A DNA stretch of 64,000 bases, from the NCBI RefSeq assembly GCF_003018255.1, contig NZ_CP027440.1; one strand, written 5' to 3'. Every line of letters starts with the position of its first letter. The stretch's first letter is position 1. The stretch comes from Escherichia coli (GTDB taxonomy: Bacteria > Pseudomonadota > Gammaproteobacteria > Enterobacterales > Enterobacteriaceae). Positions 9,673-43,909 of this stretch are shown here, piece after piece. The notes beneath the pieces are model-generated. The model did not search any database, was not told where the DNA came from, and was given only the letters and a program-made list of their open reading frames with translations. The position numbers were made by a program, and so were the translations under genes.

Positions 9673-9756
9673 GCAGGATGCGCGGCCTACGGTGTATGAC
9701 TTGTAGGGCGGATAAGATGCGTCATCATCGCATCCGCCAATAAATGCCGGATGCGG
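9673..9756. repeat. REP/BIME-type palindromic repeats between convergent ytfH and cpdB
   Basis: GTAGG(G/C)CGGATAAG...CGCATCCGCC and GCCGGATGCGG motifs typical of REP elements. Confidence 0.6.
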
Positions 9757-11731: not shown

Positions 11732-11920
11732 CAGGGACATCCTTTTATCATCGGGAATACGAAAGAAAAGGGAGAATAAACGTCTTACTTATAGAACAGT
11801 GAAGAATGCCACAATTTTACGCTTTGAAAATGATGACACTATCACAGTTGGCGCATTCATTAACGATAGGGTATAAGTAAAACAATAAGTTAACACCGCT
11901 CACAGAGACGAGGTGGAGAA

Positions 11921-15144: not shown

Positions 15145-15321
15145 ATCTTATCCGACCTTTCAGGCCAGATCCTCGGAAGGGGAAGTTGATTAATTTGTGT
15201 GAAATACACATTGAAAGCCGATTCGAAGAAAGTGAACCGGCATTTTCAGTGGCTAGTATAGCGTAAGGTACTGTAAAGCCGCCAGAGGGTTAAAATTCAG
15301 ACAGCTGAAAAATGAAAAACT

Positions 15322-15420
15322 GCCTGATGCGCTATGCCGAACAGGCCTACGCAGTCCCCGCAATATATTGAATTTGGACGATTTTGTAGGCCTGGCAAGG
15401 CGTTTACGCCGTATCCGGCA
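15322..15420. repeat. REP/BIME cluster between ytfL start and msrA end
   Basis: GCCTGATGCG...GGCCTAC and GTAGGCCTGGCAAGGCGTTTACGCCGTATCCGGCA motifs. Confidence 0.6.
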
Positions 15421-22200: not shown

Positions 22201-22543
22201 ATGCGATGTATCTCGCGATTTTTTTTGTAACTTTCCCATCTTTTGCTTTTCTCTCCGGGCCGCTTTCCATATCTGCAATCGCATAAAAAACTCTGCTGGC
22301 GTTAACAAATGTACAGGGGTAAAACGGGGACACGCTTTGAACGGTGAGTATGAGTGAGGCCGGCTAACTTCCAGCAAGTGGCTATGAACAGCAAAATGGT
22401 GGTCGAGTTTAGCTTGTTCTTACCGTTCAAGCCTTTCAACTGCTGAAAATAATAATAGTGGAGTAGAGAGTTTATAAATTGCGGGCATAAAAAAACCCTT
22501 ACTAACCGAAGCCCGGTGTTCAGGGTTATTGCGCCAGAAGAAC

Positions 22544-23383: not shown

Positions 23384-24340
23384 ATGTGGAAACGCTTACT
23401 TGTAGTCTCTGCAGTCTCGGCAGCCATGTCGTCTATGGCGTTGGCCGCTCCATTAACCGTTGGATTTTCGCAGGTCGGGTCGGAATCCGGCTGGCGCGCC
23501 GCAGAAACCAATGTGGCGAAAAGTGAAGCCGAAAAGCGCGGAATTACGTTGAAAATTGCCGATGGTCAGCAAAAGCAGGAAAACCAGATTAAAGCGGTAC
23601 GTTCCTTCGTCGCGCAAGGGGTGGATGCGATCTTTATCGCTCCAGTGGTAGCGACCGGTTGGGAGCCGGTATTAAAAGAGGCGAAAGATGCCGAAATCCC
23701 GGTCTTCTTGCTTGACCGTTCCATCGATGTGAAAGACAAATCTCTCTATATGACCACTGTCACCGCCGACAACATCCTCGAAGGCAAGTTGATTGGTGAC
23801 TGGCTGGTAAAAGAAGTGAATGGCAAACCATGCAACGTGGTGGAGCTGCAGGGCACCGTTGGGGCCAGCGTCGCCATTGACCGTAAGAAAGGCTTTGCCG
23901 AAGCCATTAAGAATGCGCCAAATATCAAAATTATCCGCTCGCAGTCAGGTGACTTCACCCGCAGCAAAGGCAAAGAAGTGATGGAGAGCTTTATCAAAGC
24001 GGAAAACAACGGCAAAAACATCTGCATGGTTTACGCCCATAACGATGACATGGTGATTGGTGCAATTCAGGCAATTAAAGAAGCGGGCCTGAAACCGGGC
24101 AAAGATATCCTGACAGGCTCTATCGACGGTGTGCCGGACATCTACAAAGCGATGATTGATGGCGAAGCGAACGCCAGTGTTGAACTGACGCCGAATATGG
24201 CAGGTCCCGCCTTCGACGCGCTGGAGAAATATAAAAAAGACGGCACCATGCCTGAAAAGCTGACGTTAACCAAATCCACCCTTTATCTGCCTGATACCGC
24301 AAAAGAAGAGTTAGAGAAGAAGAAAAATATGGGGTATTGA
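23384..24340 (+). CDS. ytfQ: galactofuranose ABC transporter periplasmic binding protein YtfQ
   Basis: 318-aa ORF with signal peptide; periplasmic sugar-binding fold. Confidence 0.9.
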   Translation: MWKRLLVVSAVSAAMSSMALAAPLTVGFSQVGSESGWRAAETNVAKSEAEKRGITLKIADGQQKQENQIKAVRSFVAQGVDAIFIAPVVATGWEPVLKEAKDAEIPVFLLDRSIDVKDKSLYMTTVTADNILEGKLIGDWLVKEVNGKPCNVVELQGTVGASVAIDRKKGFAEAIKNAPNIKIIRSQSGDFTRSKGKEVMESFIKAENNGKNICMVYAHNDDMVIGAIQAIKEAGLKPGKDILTGSIDGVPDIYKAMIDGEANASVELTPNMAGPAFDALEKYKKDGTMPEKLTLTKSTLYLPDTAKEELEKKKNMGY

Positions 24341-24350
24341 GGGTTGCTAT

Positions 24351-24450
24351 GCCTGATGCCGATTCGTAGGCCGGATAAGGCGCTCGCGCCGCATCCGGCG
24401 GTTGTGCGCTGAAGCCTGATGCGACGCTTACCGCGTCTTATCATGCCTAC
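24351..24450. repeat. REP/BIME cluster inside the ytfQ-ytfR intercistronic region
   Basis: Two REP units (GCCTGATGCCGATTCGTAGGCCGGATAAGGCG...GCATCCGGCG and GCCTGATGCGACGCTTACCGCGTCTTATCATGCCTAC). Confidence 0.7.
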
Positions 24451-24479
24451 TGGGAGCACGCTTTACACCGGGGGAAACC

Positions 24480-25982
24480 ATGACGACCGACCAACACCAG
24501 GAAATCCTCCGCACCGAAGGATTAAGTAAATTTTTCCCCGGTGTCAAAGCGTTAGACAACGTTGATTTCAGCCTGCGCCGTGGCGAAATCATGGCGCTGC
24601 TCGGTGAAAACGGGGCGGGAAAATCGACGCTAATCAAAGCATTAACCGGTGTATACCACGCCGATCGCGGCACTATCTGGCTGGAAGGCCAGGCTATCTC
24701 ACCGAAAAACACCGCCCACGCACAACAACTCGGCATCGGCACCGTCTATCAGGAAGTCAACCTGCTACCCAATATGTCGGTCGCTGATAATCTATTCATA
24801 GGTCGCGAACCCAAACGTTTCGGCCTTCTACGCCGTAAAGAGATGGAAAAGCGCGCCACCGAACTGATGGCATCTTACGGTTTCTCCCTCGACGTGCGCG
24901 AACCGCTCAACCGCTTTTCAGTCGCGATGCAGCAAATCGTCGCCATTTGCCGGGCTATCGATCTCTCCGCCAAAGTGCTGATCCTCGATGAACCCACCGC
25001 CAGTCTCGACACTCAGGAAGTAGAGTTACTGTTTGGCCTGATGCGTCAGCTTCGCGATCGCGGCGTCAGCCTGATCTTCGTCACTCATTTTCTCGATCAG
25101 GTTTATCAGGTTAGCGATCGGATCACCGTCTTACGTAACGGCAGTTTTGTGGGCTGTCGGGAAACCCGCGAGCTACCGCAGATCGAACTGGTAAAAATGA
25201 TGCTGGGGCGTGAACTGGACACCCACGCGCTTCAGCGTGCCGGGAGAACATTGCTGAGCGACAAACCCGTTGCCGCGTTCAAAAATTACGGCAAAAAAGG
25301 AACGATCGCACCGTTTGATCTCGAAGTACGCCCCGGCGAGATCGTTGGCCTGGCAGGCTTGCTGGGATCCGGACGTACCGAAACCGCCGAAGTGATCTTC
25401 GGGATCAAACCTGCTGACAGCGGCACGGCGTTGATCAAAGGCAAACAGCAAACCCTGCGATCGCCACATCAGGCTTCGGTACTGGGTATCGGCTTCTGCC
25501 CGGAAGACAGGAAAACCGATGGCATCATCGCCGCCGCCTCGGTGCGGGAAAATATCATCCTCGCTCTCCAGGCCCAGCGCGGCTGGCTACGACCGATTTC
25601 CCGCAAAGAACAGCAAGAGATTGCCGAACGCTTTATCCGCCAGCTTGGCATTCGCACACCTTCAACTGAACAACCGATTGAATTTCTCTCTGGCGGCAAT
25701 CAGCAAAAAGTGTTGCTTTCACGTTGGCTACTGACTCGTCCGCAATTTTTGATCCTCGACGAGCCAACCCGCGGCATTGATGTTGGTGCCCACGCTGAAA
25801 TCATCCGCCTGATTGAAACGCTGTGCGCTGACGGTCTGGCGCTGCTGGTGATCTCCTCTGAACTGGAAGAGCTGGTGGGCTATGCCGACCGGGTGATTAT
25901 CATGCGCGATCGCAAACAGGTGGCGGAGATCCCGCTGGCAGAGCTTTCCGTTCCGGCGATCATGAACGCCATTGCGGCGTAA
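24480..25982 (+). CDS. ytfR: sugar ABC transporter ATP-binding protein YtfR (duplicated ATPase domains)
   Basis: 500-aa ORF with two Walker A motifs (GENGAGKST; GLLGSGRTE). Confidence 0.9.
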   Translation: MTTDQHQEILRTEGLSKFFPGVKALDNVDFSLRRGEIMALLGENGAGKSTLIKALTGVYHADRGTIWLEGQAISPKNTAHAQQLGIGTVYQEVNLLPNMSVADNLFIGREPKRFGLLRRKEMEKRATELMASYGFSLDVREPLNRFSVAMQQIVAICRAIDLSAKVLILDEPTASLDTQEVELLFGLMRQLRDRGVSLIFVTHFLDQVYQVSDRITVLRNGSFVGCRETRELPQIELVKMMLGRELDTHALQRAGRTLLSDKPVAAFKNYGKKGTIAPFDLEVRPGEIVGLAGLLGSGRTETAEVIFGIKPADSGTALIKGKQQTLRSPHQASVLGIGFCPEDRKTDGIIAAASVRENIILALQAQRGWLRPISRKEQQEIAERFIRQLGIRTPSTEQPIEFLSGGNQQKVLLSRWLLTRPQFLILDEPTRGIDVGAHAEIIRLIETLCADGLALLVISSELEELVGYADRVIIMRDRKQVAEIPLAELSVPAIMNAIAA

Positions 25983-30586: not shown

Positions 30587-30710
30587 GCCTCAGCCTGATA
30601 GAGTGTGTGTAGGCCGGATAAGGCGTTCACGCCGCATCCGGCATTTGAGCATAGTGCCTGATGCGACGCTTGATGCGTCTTATCAGGCCTACAGGTGCAC
30701 CGCATCCGGC
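30587..30710. repeat. REP/BIME cluster between convergent mpl and yjgA
   Basis: At least two full REP units (GTAGGCCGGATAAGGCGTTCACGCCGCATCCGGC; GCCTGATGCGACGCTTGATGCGTCTTATCAGGCCTAC). Confidence 0.7.
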
Positions 30711-33863: not shown

Positions 33864-33947
<84 letters not shown>

Positions 33948-40778: not shown

Positions 40779-40871
40779 GTTGCCAGCAGGTATTATATCG
40801 CCATAAATGCTACGAATATTATTGGATTCTCCTTATTATTTGCGGCGCTTTTTTCACTTACCGGAGGTTAT

Positions 40872-40925
40872 ATGGAACCTGATCCCACGCCTCTCCCTCG
40901 ACGGAGATTAAAACTTTTCCGGTAA
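40872..40925 (+). CDS. mgtL: mgtA leader peptide MgtL (17 aa, proline-rich)
   Basis: ATG preceded by ggaggt SD; encodes [17 protein letters not shown] within the mgtA 5' leader; the ORF-track 113-aa frame 40584..40925 is mostly non-coding. Confidence 0.75.
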
Positions 40926-41065
40926 GCCCGTCTTTTCACGGCGTTACCGGATGCGTAAGGCCGTGACGTTTTAACGTCCCTGCTCAGCTTTATTACCTTC
41001 AGGTAAGGCTTCGCCACGCCTGAAGACATTTCTGTACTGTTTCAGACAGTGCGGAGGGACTCCTT

Positions 41066-43819: not shown

Positions 43820-43909
43820 ATGCCGGATGCGGCGTAAACGCCCAATCCGGCCTACAAATTCAATAAATTGCAGGAATCACGTAGGCCTGATAAGCGTAGC
43901 GCATCGGGC
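43820..43909. repeat. REP/BIME cluster between convergent mgtA and ridA
   Basis: ATGCCGGATGCGGCGTAAACGCCCAATCCGGCCTAC and GTAGGCCTGATAAGCGTAGCGCATCGGGC. Confidence 0.65.

Follow-up and report, generated by a model that had tools for sequence, protein, structure and literature searches.

A catalogued REP pair, REP336, between ytfQ and ytfR of Escherichia coli and its likely effect on the operon message

The ytfQ-ytfR junction and its REP pair

The stretch of E. coli DNA analysed here, 64,000 nt in length and called the window below, carries the genes for the periplasmic binding protein (ytfQ) and the ATP-binding subunit (ytfR) of a galactofuranose ABC transporter. Both genes lie on the same strand, separated by a spacer of 139 nt (24341-24479) that begins directly after the TGA stop codon of ytfQ (24338-24340), and in MG1655 they are annotated as a single transporter gene set. 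According to the MG1655 annotation and our survey of gene junctions, ytfT follows ytfR after 10 nt and yjfF then overlaps ytfT. Of 5426 complete E. coli genomes, 5412 contain the 500-nt stretch around the REP pair described below; its identity is 100% with strain 2014C-3338 and 98% with K-12 MG1655. The positions of the genes and of the features between them are collected in Table 1. Further upstream, between ytfP and ppa, we observed that the chpS-chpB toxin-antitoxin pair of MG1655 (~650 nt) is missing from this strain, and that 143 nt of unrelated sequence (22327-22469) stand in its place.

Table 1 Features at the ytfQ-ytfR junction, in window positions unless a surveyed locus is named
Feature	Position	Strand	Evidence or remark
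ytfQ, galactofuranose ABC transporter periplasmic binding protein	23384-24340	+	ORF list (318 aa); annotated as ytfQ by RefSeq in MG1655 and in the 100% identical sequence
9-mer GCCTGATGC, identical to the REP-2 head	24351-24359	+	direct repeat D1
REP-1, Y-type palindromic unit GCCGGATGCGGCGCGAGCGCCTTATCCGGCCTAC	24366-24399	-	head/tail pattern scan; inverted repeat I2; RNA hairpin; first naRNA4 hairpin
Rfam RF02564 naRNA4 match	24369-24447	+	full length (model positions 1-77 of 77); 64.8 bits, above the gathering score of 59.5
Linker ggttgtgcgctgaa, 14 nt, head-to-head	24400-24413	.	sequence
REP-2, Z2-type palindromic unit GCCTGATGCGACGCTTACCGCGTCTTATCATGCCTAC	24414-24450	+	pattern scans; RNA hairpin; second naRNA4 hairpin
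GGGGG, Shine-Dalgarno-like run	24470-24474	+	5 nt 5' of the ytfR ATG; unpaired in the predicted fold, not sequestered by the REPs
Published RNA 3' end	24480	+	first letter (A) of the ytfR ATG; 30 nt 3' of the end of REP-2 and away from the hairpin base
ytfR, ATP-binding subunit	24480-25982	+	ORF list (500 aa); RefSeq annotation of the identical and 98% identical genomes
CCCCTCGCCCC/GGGGAGAGGG/GGGTGAGGGGG element	~897-939 of locus L002		ytfQ-ytfR spacer of the 309-nt form
CCCCTCGCCCC/GGGGAGAGGG/GGGTGAGGGGG element	~800-845 of locus L003		ytfQ-ytfR spacer of the 212-nt form

REPs are the most abundant of the short palindromic repeats in E. coli. We scanned the window for REP units with a pattern describing an imperfect palindrome of ~34-37 nt with the head GCC(G/T)GATG and the tail TTATC(C/A)GGCCTAC. 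Ten units at six sites matched, compared with a mean of 0.01 in 100 shuffled sequences, and a stricter Z2 pattern gave two matches where 0.00 were expected. Both units in the ytfQ-ytfR spacer fit the head/tail pattern, and REP-2 fits the Z2 pattern with one mismatch; going by the consensus sequences of the types, we take REP-1 to be of the Y type and REP-2 of the Z2 type. A single G-to-T change in the REP-2 tail breaks one base pair, which appears as one non-standard pair in the naRNA4 alignment. The repeat search returned the corresponding inverted repeats, I2 for REP-1 and I1 and I3 for the inverted pair. An earlier note on this DNA had placed two REP units inside an operon, after its binding-protein gene and before its ATPase gene, and the pattern scans, the inverted repeats and the naRNA4 match all bear this out.

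The REP pair is wholly extragenic. Between the ytfQ stop codon and REP-1 there is a gap of 25 nt, and REP-2 is followed by CUGGGAGCA. The interval given in the earlier note, 24351-24450, is correct as well, with the qualification that no REP unit covers its first 15 nt, where only the head-like 9-mer GCCTGATGC lies. This 9-mer occurs in every aligned E. coli spacer variant and could be what is left of a third REP unit. Its weak pairing with 24451-24461 in the minimum-energy fold lengthens the long hairpin that the two REPs can form. Elsewhere in the species such sequences are plentiful, a query spanning the REP pair finding a median of five matching places per E. coli genome.

The arrangement of the two units, a Y on the minus strand and a Z2 on the plus strand in alternating orientation with a 14-nt linker between them, is that of a BIME-2. 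It shares with the BIME-2 elements described by Gilson, Bachellier and colleagues the alternating Y/Z2 order, the short linker, the lack of an IHF site and the extragenic position; it consists here of a single Y/Z2 pair, while other E. coli strains have three units at the site. We rejected the alternative assignment to BIME-1 (RIB/RIP, an IHF-binding element made of Y plus Z1 with a long linker), because the linker measures only 14 nt and the IHF consensus WATCAANNNNTTR is absent from both strands of the spacer even with one mismatch allowed. The naRNA4 model of Rfam has a structure of two hairpins, and the match to it amounts to one Y/Z2 BIME unit. The pair also has the structure of a REPIN, namely two inverted REPs able to form one long hairpin; rayT lies at 247637-248134 in MG1655, outside the window.

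The element has in fact been catalogued already. Table S16 of bioRxiv 10.64898/2026.03.23.713779 lists REP336 at MG1655 4450945-4451029, of the class 'tandem', between ytfQ and ytfR, and since the spacers of MG1655 and the window are equally long (139 nt) this entry maps to window 24367-24451. The RefSeq feature table of MG1655 has no repeat_region feature at the ytfQ-ytfR spacer. REP336 of MG1655 and the pair in the window are one and the same element, located at one locus within the 98% identical stretch, and the MG1655 copy differs from that in the window by a few linker substitutions, reading gatggtgcactgaa there and ggttgtgcgctgaa here. The ytfQ-ytfR element is a two-unit BIME, a known element of a well-described class, and it occupies a classic place in an ABC importer operon, behind the gene for the binding protein.

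Predicted folding and published transcript data

We then folded the plus-strand RNA and compared the energies with those of shuffled sequences. REP-1 alone is predicted to form a hairpin of -19.5 kcal/mol (z -3.0) and REP-2 alone one of -14.7 kcal/mol (z -5.3), and the two together can fold as one long hairpin of -43.5 kcal/mol (z -3.8). The 139-nt spacer as a whole folds no better than shuffles (z ~-0.4); its total energy is therefore not a useful statistic, and we used the folds of the units and of the pair instead.

Hairpins of intra-operonic REPs classically shield the upstream cistron from 3' exonucleases. We consider it somewhat probable (roughly 0.55) that the REP pair, carried on the operon mRNA, acts as a stabiliser, with a possible contribution as a partial stop, and thereby yields ytfQ-rich transcripts and more binding protein than transporter. 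Once transcribed, the pair would fold directly 3' of ytfQ, either as two stable hairpins or as one long hairpin. The folded pair would slow 3'-to-5' exonucleases, and possibly it would also stop some polymerases ahead of ytfR. The ytfQ segment of the message would then outlast or outnumber the ytfR-ytfT-yjfF segment, and the periplasmic binding protein would be made in excess of the membrane transporter. Translation of ytfR would be independent of that of ytfQ, starting from its own exposed ribosome-binding site.

Published transcript data can be placed on this scheme. A Term-seq dataset of MG1655 reports an RNA 3' end on the plus strand at MG1655 4451058, printed together with its flanking sequence (PMC7815308, supplementary file 1), and because both spacers are 139 nt long this coordinate maps exactly to 24480 of the window. 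The end appears on the LB OD600 2.0 sheet only, the other two conditions lacking it, and its read count of 1505 is low (PMC7815308). The earlier note had proposed the mapping of RNA 3' ends as a check; the mapped end lies at the spacer, but it does not fall at the foot of the hairpin. Possible causes of an end at 24480 include an extended weak stem, a bound 30S subunit, cleavage and a pause.

The abundance of the two transcripts, which the earlier note had proposed to compare, is unequal in one published RNA-seq table. The DESeq2 baseMean values are 300.4 for ytfQ (957 nt) and 205.8 for ytfR (1503 nt) (bioRxiv 10.64898/2026.03.23.713779), and dividing each by its gene length gives ~2.3-fold more reads per nucleotide over ytfQ than over ytfR. 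This ratio is computed from raw normalised counts in a single RNA-seq table at low expression, and causes other than the REP pair could produce it. The claim of the earlier note that protection from 3' exonucleases gives excess binding protein is therefore partly and indirectly supported: the behaviour of the class, the stable folds, the 3' end at the spacer, the ~2.3-fold excess of ytfQ and the stem conserved at the junction (see below) speak for it, and the position of the 3' end, 30 nt past REP-2, speaks against it. Our literature searches combining ytfQ with REP terms returned no study of the ytfQ-ytfR spacer, and a search for ytfQ, ytfR and ytfT together returned none about the spacer, as far as titles and abstracts tell. 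The supplements of Mori 2021 contain no ytf entries.

What is known of REPs elsewhere is broadly in line with a stabilising role. Pairs of tandem genes with a REP between them show a median log upstream/downstream ratio of 0.96, compared with -0.09 in controls (bioRxiv 10.64898/2026.03.23.713779). The homologous REP325 has a double effect, stabilising the yjdM mRNA upstream of it and attenuating yjdN downstream, partly via Rho, and REP elements in general were found to be both partial terminators and stabilisers, with an outcome that depends on context (bioRxiv 10.64898/2026.03.23.713779). Transcripts containing REPs are degraded via RNase E and the degradosome, and they accumulate on depletion of ATP (PMC10100675). 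Some REPs placed behind a reporter gave no stabilisation.

The position of the 3' end, downstream of the REP pair and not at its base, would agree with the pair being mainly a transcription attenuator, causing partial termination ahead of ytfR, Rho-dependent or pause-driven, instead of acting on mRNA decay. So would the report of 78 REPs that overlap an in vitro Rho site and another 72 that have one within 100 bp (bioRxiv 10.64898/2026.03.23.713779). At this locus, however, the in vitro Rho site beside REP336 belongs to the minus strand and is antisense to ytfQ; ytfQ and ytfR are both absent from the Rho-termination table of PMC7815308; and the spacer has no U tract. Portions of REP325 with two to four hairpins showed no sensitivity to bicyclomycin (bioRxiv 10.64898/2026.03.23.713779). 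The sense strand of the spacer, with 41 C and 45 G, has no C-over-G skew. Taken with these observations, a role mainly in attenuation is unlikely.

Several other candidate signals in the spacer were examined and rejected. A Rho loading site on the sense strand was dismissed because of the missing skew and because the reported in vitro site is antisense. An intrinsic, Rho-independent terminator was dismissed since no U run follows the hairpin and the terminator scan of the spacer found no hairpin-plus-U structure. An internal promoter for ytfR was likewise dismissed, as the scan of the spacer returned no sigma-70-like candidate. The in vitro Rho site itself depends on NusG and covers window 24215-24366, opposite the 3' end of ytfQ and 1 nt from REP336 (bioRxiv 10.64898/2026.03.23.713779); the minus-strand RNA at this site has 38 C and 30 G.

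The distance between the stop codon and REP-1 bears on yet another reading, in which a stop-proximal REP of the class of Liang, Rudd and Deutscher would stall terminating ribosomes and lower the amount of YtfQ via tmRNA. REPs that follow an ORF at a distance of 15 nt or less count as candidates for such translational control (PMC12306157). REP-1 begins 25 nt past the ytfQ stop, outside the 15-nt rule, and what begins 10 nt after the stop is only a set of weak predicted pairs. For the reason of this distance we rejected the pair as a stop-proximal down-regulator of translation and regard a ribosome-stalling role as barely credible.

Spacer variation within E. coli and across species

Comparison of E. 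coli genomes revealed at least three allelic forms of the spacer. A 309-nt form with three REPs and an additional CCCCTCGCCCC/GGGGAGAGGG/GGGTGAGGGGG element is found in 640 of the 5426 genomes, and a 212-nt form with one REP and the same element in 241; the remaining E. coli genomes have the two-REP form of ~139 nt, diverged copies included. The three-block pattern of the additional element is that described as BoxC or 'potential intrastrand triplex' (PMC4666352). Among the diverged copies, that of strain FFFEB2 has a truncated REP-2 tail. Given such differences in content between strains, the exact element in the spacer is not strongly constrained, and the variation in REP copy number is compatible with mobility as well as with recombination.

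This turnover is what one would expect if the pair were a selfish or neutral mobile repeat (REPIN/BIME) sitting in a tolerant spacer, with no meaningful effect on the expression of ytfQ and ytfR. The REPIN-like long hairpin formed by the inverted units and the occurrence of decayed copies, as in FFFEB2, would agree with a neutral passenger, as would the finding that the effects of REPs on half-life are not uniform across the genome (bioRxiv 10.64898/2026.03.23.713779). Against this, every E. coli spacer variant examined retains at least one REP hairpin, and distant species that lack REPs still have a stem-loop at the junction, whereas other junctions of the operon have no spacer, which points to selection for structure. 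We therefore regard a neutral passenger as the main rival of the stabiliser reading, though a rather improbable one.

The evidence from other species comes from a scan of one genome per species, which gave 80 loci with YtfQ homologues of 66-100% identity. In 78 of the 80, ytfR follows ytfQ, and across these 78 species most ytfQ-ytfR spacers are ~50 to 200 nt long. With a simple stem finder, we detected a significant stem (one that beats 95% of shuffles) in the spacer of 61 of the 78 species. As a control, stretches of equal length 5' of ytfQ contained a significant stem in 10 of 75 cases; the median best-stem score was 15 there, compared with 29 in the ytfQ-ytfR spacer. A second control is the next junction, which is tight, the distance between ytfR and ytfT having a median of -4 nt and a maximum of 32 nt in 72 species. 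The counts should be read knowing that the stem finder is crude, the E. coli representative (L004) scoring p = 0.15, and that the surveyed species are not phylogenetically independent.

Between clades, the stems themselves show no sequence relationship. Citrobacter and Enterobacter (L005, L007, L011, L015 and L038) have other REP pairs in the spacer. BoxC-type repeats occupy it in Pseudocitrobacter, Pluralibacter, Superficieibacter and Enterobacter cloacae (L008, L009, L014, L019 and L033), and in Erwinia and Pantoea (L024-L027) a hairpin is followed by a T run. Aeromonas and many Alphaproteobacteria have private hairpins of their own. Two Serratia species (L032 and L035), with spacers of 22-23 nt, have no stem.

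The contrast with the two controls is large all the same, and argues that some structure at the ytfQ-ytfR junction is maintained, whichever sequence provides it. A bolder and quite tentative interpretation, drawn from these sequence comparisons, is that the junction is a stem-loop slot which selection keeps filled across Gamma- and Alphaproteobacteria with lineage-specific repeats, and that the REP and BoxC alleles of E. coli might set differing ratios of binding protein to transporter. If this were true, mobile repeats would serve as a population-level dial on operon stoichiometry. By itself, one more catalogued REP pair is of little weight. The modest value of the locus is that of a natural test case, with at least three allelic forms in E. 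coli and unrelated hairpins in other species: allele swaps could gauge how the number and type of REPs tune operon stoichiometry, which bears on the debated purpose of REPs.

Related REP systems and further elements in the window

The closest precedent for the proposed stabilising role is the malE-malF junction, where REPs likewise immediately follow the gene for the periplasmic binding protein in an ABC importer operon and precede the genes of the transporter subunits, with the same proposed outcome, an excess of binding-protein mRNA. Newbury et al. are said to have demonstrated the malE-malF effect in 1987 by deletion and half-life measurements. Whereas that case is backed by deletion, the likeness of the ytfQ-ytfR junction to it rests on position and on the Term-seq and RNA-seq data.

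A second comparison is with REP325 of the yjdM-yjdN junction, the founding member of the naRNA4 family, which has the same two-hairpin architecture and also separates two tandem genes within an operon. REP325 consists of six repeats in an array (12 hairpins), whereas the ytfQ-ytfR site has one repeat. Its Rho dependence was seen in the full array only, and its HU-related function is disputed (bioRxiv 10.64898/2026.03.23.713779).

Membership of the naRNA4 family raises the question of a role at the level of the nucleoid or the DNA, with no action on the mRNA, in which an naRNA4-type RNA would bind HU and bridge REP cruciforms or the BIME-2 would serve as a gyrase site. DNA gyrase binds BIME-2, and the family model is matched here over its full length. 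REP325 RNAs have been reported to bind HU and to condense the nucleoid (Qian et al. 2015); yet deletion or overexpression of REP325 left the nucleoid volume unchanged, and no long-range contacts between REPs were detected (bioRxiv 10.64898/2026.03.23.713779). Moreover, no sequence feature sets the ytfQ-ytfR copy apart. We accordingly consider a nucleoid or DNA-level role very unlikely.

Five further REP sites were found in the window, at 9703-9738, 15386-15419, 30609-30692, 33864-33947 and 43822-43909. The site at 30609-30692 is a near-consensus Y/Z2 pair with a pair fold of -49.1 kcal/mol, and its naRNA4 match (30612-30689) scores 86.2 bits, higher than the ytfQ-ytfR copy. That at 43822-43909 combines a Y unit with a short unit of 29 nt and is possibly of the Z1/BIME-1 type. 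Rfam matches above the gathering score also include a magnesium riboswitch (40857-40972), Ysr276 (58423-58617), ES239 (11732-11854), STnc450 (15206-15263) and ES036 (15343-15385), the last of which adjoins the REP at 15386-15419.
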